Below are positions 1 to 10,768 of a stretch of 10,768 nt of DNA, piece by piece. Origin of the DNA: a virus. Taxonomy: Duplodnaviria; Heunggongvirae; Uroviricota; Caudoviricetes. The notes under the pieces were generated by a model. It saw only the letters and a program-made list of their open reading frames with translations. It was not told the origin of the DNA and did no database searches. The number at the start of each line of letters is the position of its first letter. The first letter of the stretch is position 1. The translations under genes and the position numbers were made by a program. The DNA is taken from the IMG/VR virus record IMGVR_UViG_2671180279_000005; one strand, 5' to 3'.

Positions 1-276
1 GTGGCTTCTGTTTCTATCAGCTGTCCCTCCTGTTCAGCTACTGACGGGGTGGTGCGTAACGGCAAAAGCACTGCCGGACATCAGCGCTATCTCTGCTCTC
101 ACTGCCGTAAAACATGGCAACTACAGTTCACTTACACCGCCTCTCAGCCCGGTACGCACCAGAAAATCATTGATATGGCCATGAATGGCGTTGGATGCCG
201 GGCAACCGCCCGCATTATGGGCGTTGGCCTCAACACGATTTTCCGCCATTTAAAAAACTCAGGCCGCAGTCGGTAA
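1..276 (+). CDS. insA: IS1 InsA (transposition inhibitor / N-terminal part of transposase), GTG start
   Basis: 91-aa [43 protein letters not shown]... with a C4 zinc-finger-like CxxC...CxxC and HTH region characteristic of IS1 InsA. Confidence 0.9.
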
Positions 277-698
277 CCTCGCGCATACAGCCGGGCAGTG
301 ACGTCATCGTCTGCGCGGAAATGGACGAACAGTGGGGATACGTCGGTGCTAAATCGCGCCAGCGCTGGCTGTTTTACGCGTATGACAGGATACGGAGGAC
401 AGTTGTGGCGCACGTTTTCGGTGAACGCACTCTGGCCACACTGGAGCGTCTTCTGAGCCTGCTGTCGGCCTTTGACGTGGTGATATGGATGACGGATGGC
501 TGGCCGCTGTATGAATCCCGCCTGAAGGGAAAGCTGCACGTAATCAGCAAGCGTTACACTCAGCGCATTGAGCGACATAATCTGAATCTGAGACAACATC
601 TGGCAAGGCTGGGACGGAAGTCACTGTCGTTCTCAAAATCGGTGGAGCTGCATGACAAAGTCATCGGGCATTATCTGAACATAAAACACTATCAGTAA
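195..698 (+). CDS. insB: IS1 InsB reading frame; expressed as InsAB' transposase by programmed -1 frameshift at the A6C motif (252-258)
   Basis: 167-aa frame overlapping the insA 3' end in the -1 frame; slippery AAAAAAC at 252-258; sequence ...[21 protein letters not shown]... typical of IS1 InsB. The M at 195 is an ORF-track start, not necessarily an independent initiation site. Confidence 0.85.
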
Positions 699-713
699 GT
701 TGGAGTCATTACC

Positions 714-820: not shown

Positions 821-1120
821 TTGATTTTCCTTTTATGTATACGGGCTTAAAAGGATACCACCGAGCCTGAAGTGGTGAAAAGACAGGCACATAACAGCTA
901 AGTATTTTCAACCAAAGAGAATCCTTAGCGTTGTGGTGAATGCGGCTCAGCGCACGCGGGTTAAGGTTGAGGCTGACAGTCGACCTTCTGTGGATACCCA
1001 CCCGTCTGGTGTGCAACCTTCGCCAGGCACCGGGAGGCACCCGGCACCACAACTTTATGCTGTGTGTAGTCCTGGCGGTACCAGTTTGTACCATTGCTTC
1101 CGGCTGATACCGTCCTTTTT

Positions 1121-1209
1121 ACAAAACAGAGAAGAGCATCACCGGACGACGGGCTCATAACCCAATCCATCCGGGCGGCAGTCACCGCAGGTGTTCTTCT
1201 CTGTTTTGT
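1121..1209. repeat. 15-bp perfect inverted repeat (1121-1135 ACAAAACAGAGAAGA / 1195-1209 TCTTCTCTGTTTTGT) flanking a 59-nt GC-rich spacer; potential long stem-loop, function unknown
   Basis: Directly read from sequence; inner extension CACC (1140-1143) / GGTG (1190-1193) after one mismatch. Lies 49 bp upstream of the yfdP-like start codon in an otherwise non-coding GC-rich stretch (about 930-1210). Confidence 0.75.
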
Positions 1210-1257
1210 GGAGAAACTAACCGACCTTGCAGGGTCGATATGATGAGGAGCAGCAAA

Positions 1258-1620
1258 ATGGCTAGCGAACGCAGTACTGATGTGCAGGCATTTATCGGGG
1301 AGCTGGACGGCGGCGTATTTGAAACCAAAATCGGCGCAGTTCTCAGTGAAGTCGCTTCCGGTGTGATGAACACGAAAACCAAAGGTAAGGTCTCGCTCAA
1401 CCTGGAAATCGAACCGTTTGATGAGAACCGAGTGAAAATCAAACACAAACTCTCATATGTTCGCCCGACTAACCGCGGGAAAATTTCCGAAGAAGACACC
1501 ACCGAAACGCCGATGTATGTCAATCGCGGTGGTCGCCTGACTATTCTGCAGGAAGACCAGGGACAGTTACTGACTCTTGCCGGTGAACCTGACGGAAAAC
1601 TCCGCGCAGCAGGTCGTTAA
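1258..1620 (+). CDS. yfdP: Prophage protein of unknown function, YfdP-like (120 aa)
   Basis: ATG at 1258 with GAGGAG Shine-Dalgarno 8 nt upstream (the ORF-track start at 1240 lacks an RBS); 120 aa; first gene of a P-Q-R-S-T series whose sizes (120/274/178/120/101 aa) and order match the E. coli CPS-53 (KpLE1) yfdP-yfdT genes as I recall them. Symbol assigned from that operon context, not from sequence-level recognition. Confidence 0.6.
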   Translation: MASERSTDVQAFIGELDGGVFETKIGAVLSEVASGVMNTKTKGKVSLNLEIEPFDENRVKIKHKLSYVRPTNRGKISEEDTTETPMYVNRGGRLTILQEDQGQLLTLAGEPDGKLRAAGR

Positions 1621-3832: not shown

Positions 3833-4182
3833 TGGAGCCATACAGCCTCACACTCGATGAGGCCTGTCATTTTCTCAAGATATCCAGACCGACTGCCATT
3901 AACTGGATACGCACAGGGCGTCTTCAGGCAACACGCAAAGATCCCACTAAGAATAAATCTCCTTACCTCACAACACGACAAGCCTGCATTGCGGCTCTTC
4001 AGTCTCCGCTGCATACTGTCCAGGTGAGCGCGGGTGATGGCATAACAGAGGAAAGAAAATGTCACTCTTCCGCAGAGGTGAAATATGGTACGCCAGTTTC
4101 ACATTGCCGAACGGTAAAAGATTTAAACAGTCTCTTGGAACAAAGGACAAAAGGCAGGCGACAGAACTCCATGACAAGCTAA
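3832..4182 (+). CDS. xis: Excisionase / recombination directionality factor-like HTH protein (Xis); the 3' end as drawn overlaps int by 124 nt in another frame, so the true C-terminus is uncertain
   Basis: ATG at 3832 in a TAATG overlap with the yfdT stop, GAGGTG Shine-Dalgarno; N-terminal segment [28 protein letters not shown] resembles the winged-HTH of AlpA/Xis-type excisionases; located immediately upstream of the integrase gene as in lambdoid phages. Confidence 0.55.
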
Positions 4183-5222
4183 AGGCTGAAGCATGGCGGG
4201 TCAGCAAACTTGGTGAAATACCTGATATAACGTTCGAGGAAGCGTGTGTCAGGTGGCTTGAAGAGAAAGCACATAAAAAATCACTGGACGATGATAAAAG
4301 CCGGATCGGATTCTGGCTTCAACATTTCGCAGGAATGCAACTAAGAGACATTACTGAATCAAAAATTTATTCAGCAATGCAGAAAATGACGAACCGGCGT
4401 CATGAGGAAAACTGGAAACTCAGGGCAGAAGCATGCAGAAAAAAAGGGAAACCTGTTCCAGAATACACGCCAAAACCAGCGTCCGTTGCAACGAAGGCTA
4501 CGCATCTTTCATTTATAAAGGCCCTACTAAGAGCCGCAGAGCGTGAATGGAAAATGCTGGATAAGGCACCAATTATTAAAGTGCCCCAACCAAAGAATAA
4601 ACGGATCCGCTGGCTGGAGCCCCATGAAGCACAAAGGCTGATTGATGAATGTCCGGAGCCATTAAAGTCTGTTGTTGAATTTGCACTGGCAACAGGCCTA
4701 AGACGCTCGAACATCATCAACCTTGAATGGCAACAAATAGATATGCAGCGCCGGGTGGCATGGATAAACCCGGAAGAGAGTAAATCAAACCGCGCAATTG
4801 GCGTTGCGCTGAATGATACTGCATGTCGCGTATTGAAAAAACAAATCGGGAATCATCACCGTTGGGTATTTGTGTACAAGGAAAGCTGTACCAAACCAGA
4901 CGGAACGAAAGCGCCAACAGTCAGGAAGATGCGGTATGACGCAAACACAGCCTGGAAAGCGGCGCTGAGACGGGCTGGTATTGATGATTTCAGATTTCAC
5001 GACTTGAGACACACCTGGGCAAGTTGGCTGGTTCAAGCCGGAGTCCCGTTGTCAGTGTTACAGGAAATGGGAGGCTGGGAGTCTATCGAAATGGTTCGTC
5101 GATATGCTCACCTTGCACCTAATCACCTTACCGAACACGCACGGCAAATAGACTCGATCCTGAACCCATCGGTCCCAAATTTGTCCCAGTCAAAAAATAA
5201 GGAAGGTACTAATGATGTGTAA
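4059..5222 (+). CDS. int: Lambdoid-prophage tyrosine integrase (DLP12 IntD / phage 21-type), 387 aa
   Basis: N-terminus [28 protein letters not shown] typical of this integrase family; C-terminal catalytic region with [10 protein letters not shown] and MVRRYAHL (Tyr nucleophile); stop at 5220-5222, 15 bp from the tRNA-derived att core. Confidence 0.9.
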
Positions 5223-5236
5223 CTTATTGATTTAAA

Positions 5237-5282
5237 TGGTGCCGATAATAGGAGTCGAACCTACGACCTTCGCATTACGAAT
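5237..5282 (-). other. 46-nt copy of the 3' end of tRNA-Thr(CGU) (thrW-type), anticodon loop through CCA; interpreted as a phage/island attachment-site core (att junction), not a functional tRNA gene
   Basis: Minus-strand sequence ATTCGTAATGCGAAGGTCGTAGGTTCGACTCCTATTATCGGCACCA matches the anticodon-loop-to-CCA portion of E. coli tRNA-Thr (thrW) as I recall it; the upstream minus-strand sequence (GGAAAGTGATATTTTTGG) does not continue into the D-arm or acceptor stem. Confidence 0.75.
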
Positions 5283-5377
5283 CCAAAAATATCACTTTCC
5301 ACAATGTTTCATCGACTTCCATTTCATCACATAAAAACAATATATATCAATAAATTAAGACAAAAACACCTTTCACG

Positions 5378-5406
5378 TTGTTTCATGCCATTTCGCCTTA
5401 TACAAT
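5378..5406 (+). promoter_or_regulatory. Putative sigma70 promoter for the P4-type integrase: -35 TTGTTT (5378-5383), 17-bp spacer, -10 TACAAT (5401-5406)
   Basis: Hexamer match and spacing only; 40 bp upstream of the int start codon; overlaps repeated motifs (see findings). Confidence 0.3.
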
Positions 5407-5446
5407 GCTAAACAAGTACGCCAAAAAGTACGCGGGATGAGAAAAA

Positions 5447-6769
5447 ATGGCAACAGTGATAACTCAGGATCGACAGATAGCAAGCCTTGTTCCCCCTGTA
5501 GGAAAAAACCGGATTGTCGTCAGCGTCAAATCAAAAGCAGGTGCGGGGTTGTATATCGAATCCCGATCAGGGAGCCAAACAAAGAGTTGGCTCTACCGTC
5601 CCTACCTCAACGGCAAGCAGATAAAAATTACCCTGGGAGCTTATCCTGCAATGACGCTGGCCCAGGCTCGTGAAGCACATGCTGAAGCCATTGAGTTAGT
5701 GAAGCAGGGAATTGACCCCAGATACGTTCGTAAAACTGAAAAATCGAATAATGAGCAGATGCCCATATTTTCTGAATTGTGGGAAAACTGGTTGTCATTC
5801 AGAGAAACCAGCAAGCCAATAGGGGCTCGTACACTGGCTGATTATAAGGGAACGTATCGTCGCCATCTTGAGCAGGGGCTAGGCTCCGTGAGAGTGTGCG
5901 ATTTATCGCGTTCATATTTGTTTGCACACCTGAGCAAAGTCCGACAATCCAGCGCTGAAGGTGTGCGCAAAGGGCTTATCATCCTGAATATGACACTTGA
6001 CCATGCCACACTTCAGGGATTAATCGAGCTCAACCCTGCCCGTCTGTTAAAACCGGCGATGTTTGGTGCTTCCATGGCTAAACCGCGTGAGCGCTGGTTA
6101 TCGCAGGATGAGCTTCAACGGCTCTGGAAAACACTAGAAGAAGCTACTGCTGGTGGCGGTTCAGTTAGCACCGGTGGAAAAGGTATCGCTTCCAGTGTCG
6201 TTTTATCCCATGCGATAGCTAACACACTGAAGCTGATTATTCTGACCGGCGTTCGCCGCTCTGAAGCGGTTAAAATGCGCTGGGATCAAATCAACGGCGA
6301 TCGCTGGACAATACCGGAAACAAAGAATGGTAAAAGTCATGTAGTAACACTGCATCCGCTGGCACTGTCTATCCTGAAGAAACAGCGAATTATCTCCGAA
6401 GGCGCATTTGTCTTTGAGTCCACCAGCAACCAGGGATTCCCTATAACCGGAGACGCTGTCACACGAGCACTGGAGCGCCTGCGTAAAAAATATCTGGCAG
6501 AGCTGGAGCCATTTTCTCCCCATGATTTACGCCGCAGTGTCGCTACTGGTTGCGCTGAATATCTGGATGCCCCGGAGCGCCTGATTGAGCGATTGTTAAA
6601 CCACATTCCTAAAGACCGCCTGATCAGAACCTATCAGGTCGGGCAGCAGGCGGAAAAATTGCGTAGTTTGTTTTTGAGCTGGGGGGATTTTGTGGAGCGG
6701 TATGTAGCGCAGTCTGCCAGCCATGAGGTGACGGATAATGTTGTTCAGGTTAAGTTTGGCGGCAGATAA
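5447..6769 (+). CDS. P4-type tyrosine integrase (DUF4102-like N-terminal arm-binding domain plus phage-integrase catalytic domain), 440 aa
   Basis: N-terminal pattern ...GAGLYIESRSGSQTKSWLYRPYLNGKQIKITLGAYPAMTLAQAREAHAEAIELVKQGIDP typical of P4/CP4-type integrases; C-terminal HDLRRS...RLIRTYQ region consistent with the catalytic R-H-R-Y tetrad. Confidence 0.85.
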   Translation: MATVITQDRQIASLVPPVGKNRIVVSVKSKAGAGLYIESRSGSQTKSWLYRPYLNGKQIKITLGAYPAMTLAQAREAHAEAIELVKQGIDPRYVRKTEKSNNEQMPIFSELWENWLSFRETSKPIGARTLADYKGTYRRHLEQGLGSVRVCDLSRSYLFAHLSKVRQSSAEGVRKGLIILNMTLDHATLQGLIELNPARLLKPAMFGASMAKPRERWLSQDELQRLWKTLEEATAGGGSVSTGGKGIASSVVLSHAIANTLKLIILTGVRRSEAVKMRWDQINGDRWTIPETKNGKSHVVTLHPLALSILKKQRIISEGAFVFESTSNQGFPITGDAVTRALERLRKKYLAELEPFSPHDLRRSVATGCAEYLDAPERLIERLLNHIPKDRLIRTYQVGQQAEKLRSLFLSWGDFVERYVAQSASHEVTDNVVQVKFGGR

Positions 6770-6886
6770 CGTAATACTCGCTCTGATGGCGTTCAATGAA
6801 CAAAAAACTCTCATATCAGTCGGTCAACTCGATACTAATAGTGGGTATCAGCGATAGATTTCATGGTAAGAGTAAATGGGTAAATT

Positions 6887-6912
6887 AAAAGCAGTTACAG
6901 TGTACTGCTTTT
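6887..6912. terminator. Bidirectional intrinsic terminator between convergent genes: 9-bp stem AAAAGCAGT / ACTGCTTTT, 8-nt loop, A-run on one side and T-run on the other
   Basis: aaattAAAAGCAGTtacagtgtACTGCTTTTaattcatttt at 6882-6922; sits directly after the stop (6923-6921) of the minus-strand operon and about 120 bp after the plus-strand integrase stop. Confidence 0.6.
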
Positions 6913-6920
6913 AATTCATT

Positions 6921-7739
6921 TTACGGTTTACTTTGCTCGCTAATTTCCTGCAACTTCCAAAGTAAAGCCAACACGAGCCGAGGAGCACCTTTATATCCCT
7001 CGTAACCTTCATGTTCTGAGACAGAGCTCATCGCATCAAGTAGCCTGTAAGCTGGGCCATTTACATCAAATAACTGGTCCCCAATCCTTTTAACATCAAT
7101 AGTTACCAACCTACCACCGTCTTGCATCACCTGTGAAATTTCATGGAGAGCATCCGTCCAGTATGGTTGTCTCCCCCACCACTCGCCACGAGATTGACCA
7201 GCCTTCGTTATGGGAAGAGGAAAATGGGGATTACTTTGCGAAATGACGGATTTATTACCAATCCAATTGAAATTATCCTGACCTTCAACCCAGACTGGCA
7301 AAGTTGTTAAATTTTCCGGGAGCCCTTCCATCTCCTCCCAGCAAACGGTTGGGACCATGTCACCTTGCTCAAGAAAACCAATGAGTTCAGATAACCAACC
7401 AGCATACCCCCAGTCACGTCCCTTGCCAGTAAGGGCAATATCCGGAAAACGGGTGATAAATTTCTCTGCCAGGGTGCGAGCATCATTACCGTCAGTATCT
7501 GTCCAACTGAAATAGTGACCCGCACCAGTGATAGCGACTAAGGAGTCGGAAAGCTTGTCGGTCGGAATCGCAATACCATTGTCGGCAAAATAATCTCGCG
7601 GGGCGATTGCGAATCTGAACCCCTGTGCATTGAAGTAAGACATACCCCGCAGTTGTTGGTAGCCAAGACGATGTAGCTCTGAAAGCATCCGCAGGCATCG
7701 TTGCGCTTTACGTACCCATTCAAATTTCGACTTCATCAT
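6921..7739 (-). CDS. Hypothetical protein, about 272 aa, Trp-rich, no recognisable domain; second gene of a helicase operon
   Basis: Open frame on minus strand; preferred start ATG 7739-7737 (or 7736-7734) preceded by GCAGGAGAG Shine-Dalgarno and forming an ATGA overlap with the helicase stop codon TGA (7738-7736); the ORF-track start at 7763 would give 280 aa with a 28-nt overlap. No Walker A, HNH, Toprim or other catalytic signature detected by eye. Confidence 0.7.
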   Translation of the reverse strand: MMKSKFEWVRKAQRCLRMLSELHRLGYQQLRGMSYFNAQGFRFAIAPRDYFADNGIAIPTDKLSDSLVAITGAGHYFSWTDTDGNDARTLAEKFITRFPDIALTGKGRDWGYAGWLSELIGFLEQGDMVPTVCWEEMEGLPENLTTLPVWVEGQDNFNWIGNKSVISQSNPHFPLPITKAGQSRGEWWGRQPYWTDALHEISQVMQDGGRLVTIDVKRIGDQLFDVNGPAYRLLDAMSSVSEHEGYEGYKGAPRLVLALLWKLQEISEQSKP

Positions 7740-10700
7740 CTCTCCTGCATGATCGCTGTACATTGTTTTGCGGCATCGACTCTCCGCTCGTACTCCTCAA
7801 GTGTGATGTTCTCATAACAACAGTCAGCTTCGTCCCGGCGATAGCGATTGCAGCCATAGAAAACACCACCATCCTTATTTTTCCGCTTAAGCATTGTGCC
7901 AAGACCACAGCGTCGGCAGACAATTTCTATCTCCTGACATTCTGGGTTCGCGCATATTCTTTGCAAACCATTATGCATCACCATCGGAGAACTACATTGC
8001 TTGCAGGCACTAGCCATATAATCACAGGCAGGAGAGTGCGAGCAGACATAGAATTTTTTATCATAGCGACTCACTTTACCCGTTAAGCAGCCTGATTCAC
8101 AATCGGGGCAATGCCACTGACCGATTTCAAGAGAATCACTTTTAGTGATGAGCTGTTGACCCATTCTGGCAATCTCCTCAACAAACGCTGAGGTGTTTTG
8201 GCTATCAAAGATCATAAATACATAGTGCCGGGCGCGGGTAACGGCGACGTAAAACAAACGGCGCTCTTCGGCAAACAAATATGGCTCTTGCTCCGGGAGA
8301 AGAAGATCTATCAGTTCGTCATTTTCCTTTGCCGATGGAAAACACCCTTTCTCAAGACCAAGGAGTAGCACGTAATTCGCTTCCAGGCCTTTACTGGCAT
8401 GCGCGGTCTGGTATTGAATATCCAGCAGAGGAAATTCAGCCATTAGCGCCTGAACATCCATATCCTTAAGCTCTCGCATATTTTCCAGACGATAGCGGCC
8501 AATAAGCATTACTGGTGCCCGCCTGGTACTGTTGAGTCTCACTTCCCGACGATGACAACGAGTAAGCGCTCTCTTGATTTGCAGACGATAAGCTTCAGCC
8601 TTTCTTTGGTTGCGATCGGATAGGTCAATACCGTGCATTTGTTCCTGAATATCAAGCAGCTGTACTGCAGCATGCTCCACCTGTGAGAGCGTAGTAATCT
8701 CTTTCTTCAATTGTGCTGGATTACGGGTGACAAAGGCAGAGCTGAGTTCATGTATGCGATTATTAAAACGATAACTCTTGTCAAGAGGCAACATTTTCGC
8801 TGGCGAAAATTGATGATCAAAGCGGGTAAAAAATCTTAGATCAGACCCGTTAAAACGATAAATGGCTTGCCAATCATCTCCTACCGCAAATAACCGCATA
8901 TTATCCCGGGTTGCCAGTAATGCTTTTAACAACTTGCCTCGTCCACCGGAAAGATCCTGGAATTCATCAACCAGTACGTAGTCATATCGGTGATGAAATT
9001 GTCCCTCCTGAAGCGCTGTTGTTGCTTCCGCGATCATATCGCTGAAGTCCATCTCGCGCTGCTCTTTAAGGTGAGCTTCATAGGCATCGTATACTGGTTT
9101 GAATAATTCGATAAATGCCTGAGTACGCCCCATGTCTATTCGTTGAGGGGATGCCAGGAGGTCTGAAAAAGAAAATTGCCCTTCTTTGAAAAGCCCAAGA
9201 AAGCGGAGCATCAGATCGATAAATCCTTGCCACGGCGATGAACTGGAGTTTTTAAGTTCATCCAGAAGCGTATCAGTATCACGCAAATGCTGTGGTTCAC
9301 TTACCCGATTAAGTATATCGAGTAAATTATTCTCAAGTATTCCTTCGGCTAGCTGATAGCTATATAACTCTTCCAGTCGGGTATTATGTTGTTGATGCAA
9401 CTTCCGCTTCCAGGCGACTCCTTCAAGGTATGCAGCCTGATTAACAAAAGGGGCCGTTCTCATTTGCCGATCCACGCCCAGGTATTCAATATAGGTCTTG
9501 CTTCTCGGCAGGTAAAAATCAGGTTTATACTGGCGGCGCTCAATCGTTGCTGTATTTACCTCATAATTCGCTTCGTATTCGAATGGAACAGAATACAAAT
9601 ATAAATAGTTGGCAACTCTCAACTCCCCCACACTCTTTACCCACTGCCCCGTCAGCGTAATCAGGCGACAACTTTGCAGAAACTCATGATATTCTTCAAT
9701 AGCATTGAAGTCATATTCACAACGTCCTGGCGTGCTATAACAAACAAAATATTTAACTAGTTGAGTTTTATAATCATCGTTGACACTTATTTCTGACTCT
9801 AATTTCGCCTCAATAAAATGGCGCAGTTCATTATTTTGCTCTGCAAAACGTGTAAGAGAACGCTTGACGCCTACACTTTCAGCAACGACACGGTTTCCAA
9901 AAGCATGAAAGGTCGTTGCTTTTAGCTTGCCGCCACTTTCTGGCAATCGTTCTGTGATACGCTCAGCCATTTCCCGTGCTGCTTTATTCCCGAAAGCCAG
10001 CATTAATATATTTTCAGGCTGAGCTAAACCTGCTTGCAATAAATACCCTGCTTTACCAATTAATGTCGACGTTTTTCCGGTACCCGCACCAGCAACGACC
10101 AAAGTATGATCTTCATTGGTAACACAGGCTTTACGCTGAGGGGCACTAAGCGGTTGAGATTCGATCTGTTCAAAGAAAGTCTGATAAGCTGACAATAACT
10201 GTGGGATAACTTTCTCGTTGAAGTGGCTCCTGGCAGATTCTGAAACATCGTCCATGGATAACTTCAGCGCCAGTTGTGCTATGGGGTTATTACCTTCATG
10301 AGCAATAAAATCTGCATCAATCGCAAGATCCAGCAATCGTTTCTTTACCTGCATTAACTGTGACAAAGATCGCCATTCCCACGAAGAAAAATAGTGTCCC
10401 CCTTTTTGATAACGTTTTACTAGCTCCAGCAATTCCCTCCACTCATTGCTGTGCTGGAAAATATCTAAAGCTGTACATTGGATTTTTTTGATAAGCGTTT
10501 CCAGCTGTTGCAGATTGAAACCATTTAATTGATATATCTTACTCTCCAAACCAATAACAATCTCAGAGTACAACCATTTTTTATTTATTTTAACATTTTT
10601 AATATCACCGATGGGCAATTGCACACTCACCCCATGATGGATGAAAGTCAATTGGCCTGGAGACAATAATATTTTATTAGCACGTCGACGCCAAATACCC

Positions 10701-10768
10701 CACAGATCGTAAAGCGGATGCGTGCTGAGGTTATGTTCACATTGCAACTGTGGAGTTAATTTTTTCAT
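7736..10768 (-). CDS. Helicase IV (HelD)-like UvrD/Rep-family SF1 helicase, 1010 aa, with an internal PD-(D/E)xK / Vsr-DUF559-like nuclease-like insert and three C-terminal topoisomerase-type C4 zinc ribbons
   Basis: Walker A GAGTGKTS (aa 227-234, nt 10067-10090); motif II LVDEFQD (aa 599-605, nt 8954-8968); FAVGDDWQAIYRFNGSD, KSYRFN, TAHASKGLEANYVLLLG and YVAVTRAR motifs collinear with E. coli helicase IV as recalled; insert GELRVANYLYLYSVPFEYE...YKPDFYLPRSKTYIEYLGVD (aa 378-432); Zn ribbons CPDC...CSHSPAC, CKQC...CANPEC, CRRC...GCNRY...C (aa 887-985, nt 7814-8110). Start codon is the last 3 nt of the window, so an upstream in-frame start cannot be excluded. Confidence 0.85.
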   Translation of the reverse strand: MKKLTPQLQCEHNLSTHPLYDLWGIWRRRANKILLSPGQLTFIHHGVSVQLPIGDIKNVKINKKWLYSEIVIGLESKIYQLNGFNLQQLETLIKKIQCTALDIFQHSNEWRELLELVKRYQKGGHYFSSWEWRSLSQLMQVKKRLLDLAIDADFIAHEGNNPIAQLALKLSMDDVSESARSHFNEKVIPQLLSAYQTFFEQIESQPLSAPQRKACVTNEDHTLVVAGAGTGKTSTLIGKAGYLLQAGLAQPENILMLAFGNKAAREMAERITERLPESGGKLKATTFHAFGNRVVAESVGVKRSLTRFAEQNNELRHFIEAKLESEISVNDDYKTQLVKYFVCYSTPGRCEYDFNAIEEYHEFLQSCRLITLTGQWVKSVGELRVANYLYLYSVPFEYEANYEVNTATIERRQYKPDFYLPRSKTYIEYLGVDRQMRTAPFVNQAAYLEGVAWKRKLHQQHNTRLEELYSYQLAEGILENNLLDILNRVSEPQHLRDTDTLLDELKNSSSSPWQGFIDLMLRFLGLFKEGQFSFSDLLASPQRIDMGRTQAFIELFKPVYDAYEAHLKEQREMDFSDMIAEATTALQEGQFHHRYDYVLVDEFQDLSGGRGKLLKALLATRDNMRLFAVGDDWQAIYRFNGSDLRFFTRFDHQFSPAKMLPLDKSYRFNNRIHELSSAFVTRNPAQLKKEITTLSQVEHAAVQLLDIQEQMHGIDLSDRNQRKAEAYRLQIKRALTRCHRREVRLNSTRRAPVMLIGRYRLENMRELKDMDVQALMAEFPLLDIQYQTAHASKGLEANYVLLLGLEKGCFPSAKENDELIDLLLPEQEPYLFAEERRLFYVAVTRARHYVFMIFDSQNTSAFVEEIARMGQQLITKSDSLEIGQWHCPDCESGCLTGKVSRYDKKFYVCSHSPACDYMASACKQCSSPMVMHNGLQRICANPECQEIEIVCRRCGLGTMLKRKNKDGGVFYGCNRYRRDEADCCYENITLEEYERRVDAAKQCTAIMQER

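Follow-up and report, generated by a model that had tools for sequence, protein, structure and literature searches.

Evidence for a modular RNA leader with an STnc100/PasD-type domain, a DicF-like terminator and a tRNA-like junction in an early-left prophage operon of Escherichia coli

Introduction

Helices that act as processing stalks for ribonuclease III (RNase III) are known from ribosomal RNA precursors, from the N-leader and sib sites of phage lambda and from the early messenger RNA (mRNA) sites of phage T7. Here we describe the leader of a prophage early operon in which a helix of this kind appears to stand behind two other RNA modules. The leader occupies positions 897–1257 of a 10,768-nucleotide (nt) stretch of tailed-phage DNA (Caudoviricetes; IMG/VR record IMGVR_UViG_2671180279_000005), henceforth referred to as the window, whose numbering is used throughout. 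Its three modules (A, B and C) resemble, respectively, the prophage small RNA (sRNA) family STnc100/PasD, the terminator of the sRNA DicF and a transfer RNA (tRNA).

STnc100 is a prophage sRNA related to the Hfq-bound PasD sRNAs of enteropathogenic E. coli (Zhu, Shabalina, Storz; bioRxiv 10.64898/2026.05.13.724894). According to the same work, both STnc100 and PasD are mostly found near Q, stx, esterase and lysis genes, and northern blots show that PasD RNAs accumulate in a terminated, Hfq-bound form. DicF is made either by termination followed by RNase E, or by the action of RNase III on read-through RNA, and the RNase III-dependent species is 72 nt long, extending 19 nt beyond the terminated form of 53 nt (PMC9438474). 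The link between STnc100 and DicF that emerges below was not found in the STnc100/PasD paper (bioRxiv 10.64898/2026.05.13.724894), where DicF goes unmentioned.

Results

Three RNA modules ahead of yfdP

The region between the IS1 copy at the start of the window (ending at 713) and yfdP, the first prophage gene, holds a non-coding, plus-strand RNA in three modules. An initial annotation, made from the letters of the sequence, had picked out this segment in the same position and had offered two readings of it, a structured RNA or a protein-binding palindrome. The first of these is borne out by a match to STnc100, by covarying helices together with a pseudoknot, and by a covariance model that scores very differently on the two strands. 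Its description as GC-rich holds modestly (GC 0.52–0.58 over 900–1275 vs 0.37 in 676–900) and not in any stronger sense.

We propose, with moderate confidence, that 897–1257 is the non-coding plus-strand leader of the early-left operon yfdPQRST-xis-int and that it is assembled from three mobile RNA modules: a pseudoknotted STnc100/PasD domain (A), a DicF-like terminator that would give an sRNA comprising A and B, and a tRNA-derived junction with an RNase III stalk (C). The proposal is built on folds, conservation, covariation, strand, a lack of coding constraint and the modular contexts in which the parts recur.

The STnc100/PasD-type scaffold

At the Rfam gathering thresholds there was no match in the window, and both STnc100 and DicF surfaced only in E-value mode. 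Run in this way, the Rfam/Infernal comparison proposed in the initial annotation produced a full-length match to STnc100 (RF02076; cmscan), with model positions 1–206 aligned to 908–1123. The score of 34.6 bits is significant (E-value 1.2e-5 in a 1-kb search, 5.4e-6 in a 451-nt search) but lies under the gathering threshold of 47 bits. The scaffold parts follow one another in the order P1, GAAU, hairpin A, a variable middle, hairpin B and hairpin C, as set out here with compensatory pairs counted in a 22-sequence alignment:

897–929, plus strand: 5' hairpin just ahead of P1, GCUAAGUAUUUUC / GAGAAUCCUUAGC (inverted repeat; the Rfam STnc100 alignment covers 908 onward)
930–1053, plus strand: compact, cloverleaf-like STnc100/PasD-type structured domain, divergent 'W' subtype (Rfam RF02076 and covariation)
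930–938/1045–1053, plus strand: closing helix P1 (paired in 100% of alignment cells; three compensatory pairs)
941–954, plus strand: hairpin A, UGCG-GCUCAG-CGCA (W-subtype form)
1006–1026, plus strand: hairpin B (six compensatory pairs)
1030–1044, plus strand: hairpin C, CCGGG-AGGCA-CCCGG, stacked directly on the 3' strand of P1 (one compensatory pair, CCUGG/CCAGG in prophage Qin)
963–969/1014–1020, plus strand: pseudoknot of AAGGUUG with CAACCUU in the loop of hairpin B (cognate-pairing test)

As in STnc100/PasD RNAs, P1 has the form UGGUG...CACCA and lies next to GAAU (938–941), and the 22-nt core CACCGGGAGGCACCCGGCACCA is matched exactly at 1028–1049. This core is present in more than 120 IMG/VR contigs, about 20 of them window-like and the others sharing the scaffold alone. 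Hairpin C had already been noticed in the initial annotation; the hairpin is real, while its true site lies 3 nt to the left of the 1033–1047 given there.

The segment that follows hairpin A is complementary to the loop of hairpin B, a pairing that is our own reading of the family and that Rfam does not annotate. The paired letters are wholly different among types (AUCAGC/GCUGRU; CCAGUC/GACUGG; CUGGUGU/ACACCGG; GCCAGGUC/GACCUGGC; AGACUGACAAA/UUUGUCAGUCU; and AAGGUUG/CAACCUU in the window). Since MAFFT misregistered the columns concerned (42.5% of cells paired), the pseudoknot was tested alignment-free. Across 15 sequence types, complementary runs averaged 7.07 between cognate partners and 4.58 between non-cognate ones, and none of 100,000 permutations attained the observed result. 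In a few variants the partner is located ahead of hairpin B, which results in a nested helix and no pseudoknot. It was necessary to rely on comparative evidence for the fold of this module, because 925–1123 alone folds no better than shuffled sequences (z = −0.89).

Judged by these sequence comparisons, module A is a divergent subtype, in a new context, of the known prophage sRNA family STnc100/PasD. As a lead only, we mention that its paired ...CACCA end could make the scaffold an RNase P substrate, like the C4 RNA of phage P1.

The terminator and its counterpart in Qin

Downstream of the scaffold lies module B:

1074–1120, plus strand: DicF-like intrinsic terminator, stem 1074–1084/1104–1114, 19-nt loop, U-run 1116–1120 (folds, alignment and a weak DicF match)

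The two strands of the stem are GGCGGUACCAG and CUGAUACCGUC, followed by five U. The small hairpin GGTAC-CAGTTT-GTACC, reported earlier at 1077–1092, is present at that site, and the conserved pairing around it is the longer terminator stem. A simple promoter and terminator scan missed this structure, its loop being longer than 8 nt. Its location at the 3' end of the Rfam STnc100 alignment (1123) is that of a terminator closing an sRNA. The DicF model (RF00039) gave 16.8 bits at 1061–1115, as compared to 28.5 for the copy in the K-12 prophage e14 and 76.7 for genuine DicF; the family threshold is 48 bits, which the hairpin of the window does not reach. At position 1107 the window and the identical locus L001 have an A where all other aligned copies have a G, which leaves a C-A mismatch in the stem. 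The same A also creates the TGA that closes an open reading frame (ORF) starting at 940, and in most genomes that ORF runs in phase into yfdP.

The same parts are found around DicF itself. In Qin (locus L126, 10755–11100, minus strand) the order is a scaffold of the sister type D, DicF, a W scaffold and dicB. This W scaffold has an Rfam STnc100 score of 34.4 bits, adjoins the DicF terminator on its downstream side, reaches to within 26 nt of the dicB ATG and carries the compensatory CCUGG/CCAGG change in hairpin C. The D interior of E. coli O104:H4 is the sequence that precedes DicF in K-12 Qin, and in both O104:H4 and Qin a terminator hairpin follows the sister scaffold at the position of module B. 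Furthermore, P1 of the Qin W scaffold is prolonged into a helix of 21 bp beginning some 8 nt downstream of the DicF U-run, a position that fits the published RNase III-dependent end of DicF.

A three-way junction built on the inverted repeat

Module C overlaps the U-run of the terminator and consists of the following parts:

1116–1214, plus strand: tRNA-like three-way-junction RNA (fold, covariation and covariance model)
1121–1140/1190–1209, plus strand: outer stem, formed by the inverted repeat and extendable by 1116–1120/1210–1214 (repeat and fold)
1142–1174, plus strand: arm 2, CCGGA-CGA-CGGG-CUCAUAA-CCC-AAUCCA-UCCGG, with GGG-CUCAUAA-CCC at 1151–1163
1175–1188, plus strand: arm 3, GCGG-CAGUCA-CCGC (fold)

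The starting point for this module was a 15-bp perfect inverted repeat (1121–1135/1195–1209, enclosing 59 nt), which our repeat search recovered exactly as first annotated and extended to arms of 25 nt (1121–1145/1185–1209) that are 84% complementary and 39 nt apart. RNA folding and a comparison with related prophages, both also recommended there, identified the repeat as the outer stem of a structure in which three helices covary. As RNA, the outer helix comprises 25 consecutive pairs (20 Watson-Crick and 5 G-U) at 1116–1140/1190–1214. The plus strand of 1116–1260 folds with −59.5 kcal/mol against a shuffle mean of −35.7 (z = −6.26), and none of 200 shuffled sequences was as stable. In an alignment of 23 variants 94.4% of the cells are paired, versus 37–54% when the partners are slid, and 11 pairs have changed on both sides (e.g. 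CG in 12 and GC in 11 variants, or AU in 18 and GC in 5), all three helices being involved. A covariance model made from this alignment (R1) scored 111 bits on the plus strand and 40 bits on the minus strand. In addition, G-U pairs are frequent in the helices; read from the other strand, or as part of a DNA palindrome, these positions would be A-C mismatches. Together, the G-U pairs and the model scores settle both the strand and the RNA nature of the module.

The element is not restricted to the prophage studied here. Distant blastn searches of phage genomes located it in SfV, SfII, SfIV, mEp460, cdtI and Stx2c phages, in Salmonella phage ST64B, in Klebsiella and Pantoea phages and in many IMG/VR phages, and all three helices covary across the Escherichia, Salmonella, Klebsiella and Pantoea phages. 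Seen in this wider set, perfect pairing over 15 bp is particular to the E. coli variant.

The perfect 15-bp arms, in a prophage regulatory region near xis-int (beside xisE in K-12 e14), could also be taken for a site that acts at the DNA level, i.e. an operator, a recombinase or excisionase site, or a protein-bound cruciform. We regard this as extremely unlikely. The arms are 59 bp apart, unlike those of dimer operators, and what is conserved are the internal arms and the loop rather than the arms of the repeat. The many G-U columns, the RNA-type compensatory variation and the strand asymmetry (111 vs 40 bits) speak against it as well, and with it against the protein-binding palindrome of the initial annotation.

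Module C matches no Rfam family, and an RNA of this type was not found in the literature that we searched, although it may have been described elsewhere; the same searches turned up no account of ymfH as an RNA, of RNase III sites in e14 or of a tRNA-like CAU mimic in phages. The arms of the outer stem at 1121–1140/1190–1209, and of its relatives, have a marked composition: the 5' arm is rich in CA and purines (ACACAACA-like) and the 3' arm is rich in GU (UGUGUUGUGU-like). They resemble GcvB-target and GcvB-seed sequences, and Rfam gave no match to AgvB.

The tRNA connection of module C

The tip of arm 2, GGG-CUCAUAA-CCC (1151–1163), is identical in 13 of 13 nt to the anticodon arm of the E. 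coli initiator tRNA (tRNA-fMet), a tRNA sequence present at 100% identity in all 5426 E. coli genomes with a median of 4 copies. It has the 7-nt loop, the U33 and the purine 37 of an anticodon arm. To see how far this feature is kept, we used 92 parsed variants that had been collected through the 3' arm alone, so that the loop formed no part of the bait. A GGG-N7-CCC hairpin is found in every one of them, and in 90 the loop has CAU at positions 3–5; the loops include CUCAUAA (50 variants), CUCAUUC (25) and UUCAUAA (7). The e14 copy of K-12 has no CAU (loop UUAAUAA).

In Klebsiella phages the same core is located right after tRNA-Asn and tRNA-Arg genes, downstream of Q, and these copies have a 6-bp acceptor-like stem with an ACCA or GCCA (RCCA) end in place of the long stem. 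Model R1 detects them with E ~1e-8, the match covering its inner positions. As far as sequence can tell, a tRNA origin of module C is indicated by its identical anticodon arm and by the copies within phage tRNA arrays. Klebsiella phage GZ7 (L207, 2500–2575) and similar IMG/VR loci hold an unannotated tRNA-sized RNA with a CAU loop, an acceptor-like stem and an RCCA end, which might undergo tRNA-like processing or even charging.

No detector that we applied recognises the element as a tRNA. In the window ARAGORN found only a tRNA-Thr at 5237–5316, and the Rfam tRNA model gave no match at E-values up to 10; applied to a relative, the tRNA detectors found the genuine tRNAs beside it and not the relative itself. 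We rejected tRNA gene status on these negative results and on the lack of a D arm and of a T-loop consensus.

A tRNA origin raises the question of whether module C is simply a dead tRNA gene, the functionless relic of a phage tRNA(CAU). Such a relic would account for the identical anticodon arm and the tRNA-array copies, for the rejection of the element by ARAGORN and the Rfam tRNA model and for the loss of CAU from the e14 copy. Even so, we hold this to be quite unlikely: a relic would not be expected to show compensatory changes in three helices across four genera, or to preserve a CAU-bearing GGG-N7-CCC in 90 of 92 variants amid variable flanks, or to retain a fixed place, after a U-run in 189 of 207 copies and before a gene start in 150 of 207. 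A bolder possibility, to which we give little weight, is that module C represents an undescribed class of phage RNA that mimics the anticodon arm of initiator/Met-tRNA, is excised through the RNase III stalk in early operons and by tRNA-type processing in late arrays, and, once the phage grows lytically, engages a reader of the CAU arm as a decoy or a ligand. Candidate readers would be a VapC-type anticodon nuclease that cuts tRNA-fMet, methionyl-tRNA synthetase (MetRS), TilS, or the P site of the 30S subunit with initiation factor 3 (IF3). Apart from such a decoy or ligand role towards a reader of the initiator/Met anticodon arm, the CAU arm might pair with an AUG.

Mobility of the modules among related phages

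DNA matching the leader region is present in 2779 of 5426 complete E. coli genomes, about half. Many of the E. coli matches cover only 1073–1245, which indicates a module boundary. We collected 207 unique early-operon copies of the element. Nearly all of them (189) directly follow a U-run, 150 are followed by a YfdP homologue (56–100% identity) starting 40–59 nt after the 3' arm, and about half have a recognisable scaffold within 260 nt upstream. The gene downstream varies (xisE in K-12, others at loci L097, L108 and L111), and where it differs the similarity ends at ~1220–1243, from which it follows that the element travels with the terminator.

The scaffold is exchangeable too. Upstream of yfdP, at loci L127–L206, there are at least three interiors (W, D and X) between identical P1 arms GUUGUGGU/ACCACAAC, and at some loci the scaffold is absent. 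These loci were chosen with YfdP proteins 99–100% identical, and the comparison informs on the cassettes, not on divergence. It suggests that scaffold cassettes are swapped through recombination at the helix arms.

Two phages show other arrangements. In Pantoea phage PA-1 (L211, 1493–1620) the tRNA-like element is followed at once by the start of a GUUGUGGUGAAU-type scaffold, i.e. the two stand in the opposite order, and they lie in the lysis-gene region. In Salmonella phage ST64B (L208, 1376–2147) a leader of about 700 nt with no annotated gene extends between the pL/operator region and the yfdP homologue sb37, and it holds two intrinsic terminators, a W scaffold and a tRNA-like junction.

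Coding potential of the leader

Gene predictions do exist across this region, and they call for an evaluation of the alternative that the leader is a decayed gene, either a frameshifted homologue of the e14 gene ymfH or an N-terminal extension of yfdP. The Prokaryotic Genome Annotation Pipeline (PGAP) has a 'hypothetical protein, frameshifted' at the equivalent of 933–1243 in L001, and K-12 e14 has an intact ymfH ORF of 103 codons with 89% nucleotide identity to the region. Moreover, 53 of the 59 unique W-type sequences have some frame without stops over 300 nt or more, and in most copies no stop interrupts the yfdP-phase frame for 318 nt upstream.

The frames themselves are not conserved, however. 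Two 1-nt deletions in K-12 relative to the window take the ymfH ORF through all three frames of the window, and the indels between E. coli and ST64B (1, 1, 20 and 1 nt) are not multiples of three, while the structured modules still align closely. Translations of the E. coli, K-12 e14 and ST64B leaders have nothing in common upstream of the YfdP start save for 21 amino acids shared with K-12 YmfH. Phages LLS and Eeyore have a stop codon 3 nt ahead of the yfdP ATG, behind the same RNA element, and the D and X scaffold cassettes replace the supposed N-terminal half wholesale. As the initial annotation had said, the ORFs of the leader lack ribosome-binding sites: neither GTG 933 nor ATG 940 has a good Shine-Dalgarno sequence, and yfdP has GAGGAG at 1245–1250. 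Searches of the leader translations against Pfam and NCBIfam gave no match, and at the equivalent place in Salmonella phage ST64B and in SfV no gene is annotated.

A decayed gene is therefore very unlikely, and we rejected the protein-coding reading, given frames that are not conserved despite conserved RNA modules and the lack of any Pfam or NCBIfam match. The protein-coding homologue across the region that would have spoken against an RNA is thus only apparently supplied by PGAP and ymfH, and it fails because the reading frames are not conserved. For the same reason, the PGAP pseudogene call and the K-12 ymfH annotation appear spurious. From sequence comparison we conclude that the leader ORFs are by-products of a GC-rich structured sequence.

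Genomic setting of the leader

The window is E. coli DNA in which IS1 is followed by the early-left arm of a lambdoid prophage similar to e14, CPS-53 and ST64B. Besides the three modules, the left part contains:

1–713, plus strand: IS1 copy, truncated by the start of the window (insA/insB ORFs, and the IS1 end ...GTTGGAGTCATTACC finishing at 713)
1222–1237, plus strand: small hairpin CGACCU-UGCA-GGGUCG in the yfdP leader (folds; variable among relatives)
1245–1620, plus strand: Shine-Dalgarno GAGGAG (1245–1250) and yfdP (ATG 1258, 120 amino acids; PGAP annotation of the identical locus L001)

Homology with uninterrupted prophages begins at 714, which places the IS1 insertion 217 bp upstream of the RNA domain (930). 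L001 is identical to the window over 714–1300 and has no IS1; there, the operon comes after a LexA-type cI-like repressor gene (ymfK) and two small genes. The IS1 separates the leader of the yfdP operon from the repressor gene and pL region found in L001, and it also truncates a small minus-strand ORF at 692–820. Downstream of the modules, the sequences of the relatives begin to diverge at ~1220–1243 in the alignment.

yfdP (1258–1620) is the first gene of yfdPQRST-xis-int, and it is followed by yfdQ (DUF2303), yfdR, yfdS, yfdT, an excisionase-like gene and the integrase (4059–5222), with the minus-strand tRNA-Thr (5237–5316) 3' of the latter. Beyond the prophage integrase and the tRNA there is a second integrase with an Arm DNA-binding domain (5447–6769), and on the minus strand of 5237–10768 a 280-amino-acid ORF without a Pfam match and a UvrD-like helicase ORF of 1010 amino acids that reaches the end of the window. 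The stretch 5237–10768 has the appearance of another island at this tRNA, perhaps one with a defence function. In the other arm of the immunity region, the related prophages L124 (341–539) and L125 (414–615), both on the minus strand, have above-threshold matches to the C4 antisense RNA and isrK families, inside or beside a Rha-family regulator gene.

Discussion

A proposed mechanism

From the architecture just described we infer that the element may act as an sRNA, a processing site or an antiterminator. In K-12, DNA damage induces the e14 operon together with its counterpart of the leader, annotated as ymfH (PMC11228462). In the mechanism that we propose, transcripts ending at ~1120 would give an A+B sRNA of ~190–220 nt, which agrees with the layout of the Rfam STnc100 model and with the production of DicF in Qin. 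Only read-through transcripts would carry and fold module C. Its outer helix, an uninterrupted run of 25 pairs where RNase III substrates have about 20 bp or more, is most likely a processing stalk by analogy. Cutting by RNase III in this 25-bp stalk would free the end of the sRNA and the tRNA-like core, and the yfdP mRNA would gain a new 5' end. The released core would then display GGG-CUCAUAA-CCC, the look-alike of the initiator/Met-tRNA anticodon arm, to whatever the CAU loop may bind.

The position of the scaffold ahead of a terminator would also suit an antiterminator. Module A might be a cis-acting processive antiterminator like put of phage HK022, modifying RNA polymerase to read through terminator B and others, in which case the 'sRNA' would be the unmodified fraction. 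In the window and in ST64B, and likewise in most of the listed phage variants, an intrinsic terminator does follow the scaffold within ~20–60 nt, and early-left terminators lie inside an operon whose distal genes need to be expressed. The ~700-nt leader of ST64B, with two terminators and no annotated gene, encodes no N-like protein, and the ST64B repressor is annotated as similar to HK022 cI. On the other hand, blastn (word size 7) against HK022 27500–30100, where putL and putR are expected, returned short chance matches only, and put differs from the pseudoknotted four-way junction of module A in that its 73 nt form a V made of two stem-loops (PMC9378689). The STnc100-related PasD RNAs accumulate as terminated, Hfq-bound sRNAs (bioRxiv 10.64898/2026.05.13.724894), and in Qin the W subtype comes after the terminator, directly ahead of dicB. 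A put-like role is in our view unlikely, and homology to HK022 put was rejected on account of the lacking sequence similarity and the different architecture.

Several observations weigh against a leader that yields an sRNA by termination and a tRNA-like core by RNase III processing. For module A, the STnc100 score is below threshold; the hairpin A consensus CCCCCU-nnGCGG-nGGGG is absent, UGCG-GCUCAG-CGCA standing in its place (a UGCG-type replacement also present in Qin, ST64B, L013 and L081); the context is an early-left operon, not the usual late region of STnc100/PasD; and a promoter scan found no sigma-70-like plus-strand promoter for an independent sRNA. The terminator stem of the window is weakened by the A1107 mismatch. 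For module C, the argument for RNase III cleavage is made of helix length and analogy (the 72-nt DicF and the 21-bp Qin helix), and most relatives have one or two mismatches in mid-stem (alignment columns 12/114 and 16/110). The e14 copy of K-12 has lost its CAU, and this loop is therefore not indispensable in a decaying prophage. Finally, because the IS1 at 1–713 cuts the leader off from its pL-type promoter, the whole leader unit may be silent in the strain from which the window derives.

Significance

In E. coli genomes the region is annotated as a hypothetical protein, as a pseudogene, as ymfH or not at all, labels that need correction now that it is recognised as an RNA. The range of the STnc100/PasD family, reported from the late region, is widened to early-left operons. 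The finding also suggests a modular plan of scaffold, terminator and processing helix, with scaffold interiors exchanged as cassettes and with DicF-type sRNAs as the 3' ends of such units. It further brings to light a widely conserved tRNA-like RNA whose invariant feature is a CAU anticodon arm like that of the initiator tRNA, and module C may offer a testable lead on tRNA mimicry by temperate phages outside ordinary tRNA genes.

Comparison with known systems

Module A and HK022 put are both structured RNAs encoded in cis, and both stand ahead of terminators in a lambdoid early-operon leader; the two differ in architecture and have no sequence similarity.

In common with STnc100/PasD, the window has the closing helix beside GAAU and, on the 3' strand of this helix, the stacked invariant CACCGGGAGGCACCCGGCACCA hairpin. 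The loop of hairpin B likewise pairs with the stretch that follows hairpin A, and a Rho-independent terminator lies tens of nt downstream, all in a lambdoid prophage. It differs in scoring 34.6 bits vs 47, in its UGCG-type hairpin A and in having no evident promoter of its own. Moreover, it is located behind a repressor gene in an early-left operon, not near Q, stx or holin genes, and its type of interior is exchanged as a cassette between constant P1 arms.

Set beside tRNA-fMet, tRNA(CAU) and viral tRNA-like structures, module C has an anticodon stem-loop identical to that of the initiator tRNA and, through its Klebsiella relatives, a place in tRNA arrays. It has neither a D arm nor a T-loop consensus, and an internal loop (GA / AAUCCA) and a further helix lengthen its anticodon-like arm. 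In place of the acceptor, the window has the 25-bp stem, without a CCA end, and ARAGORN and Rfam are blind to the element.

As in known RNase III stalks, a helix of at least 20 bp (25 pairs in module C, G-U included) arises from sequences that flank a structured RNA or lie between phage early cistrons. Cleavage in module C is a prediction, and the stems of most relatives carry one or two internal mismatches.

A further counterpart of the leader is DicF/dicB. The terminator hairpin of the window reaches only 16.8 bits with the DicF model, and the sequence of its loop is different, so that any targets would differ as well; the helix after the terminator belongs to a tRNA-like junction in the window and to the P1 of a scaffold in Qin. 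Nevertheless, both occupy the same position in the operon and share the succession of a scaffold, a large-loop terminator with its U-run, a long helix and the first downstream gene, and Qin has a scaffold of the sister type D before DicF and one of the window's own W subtype after it.

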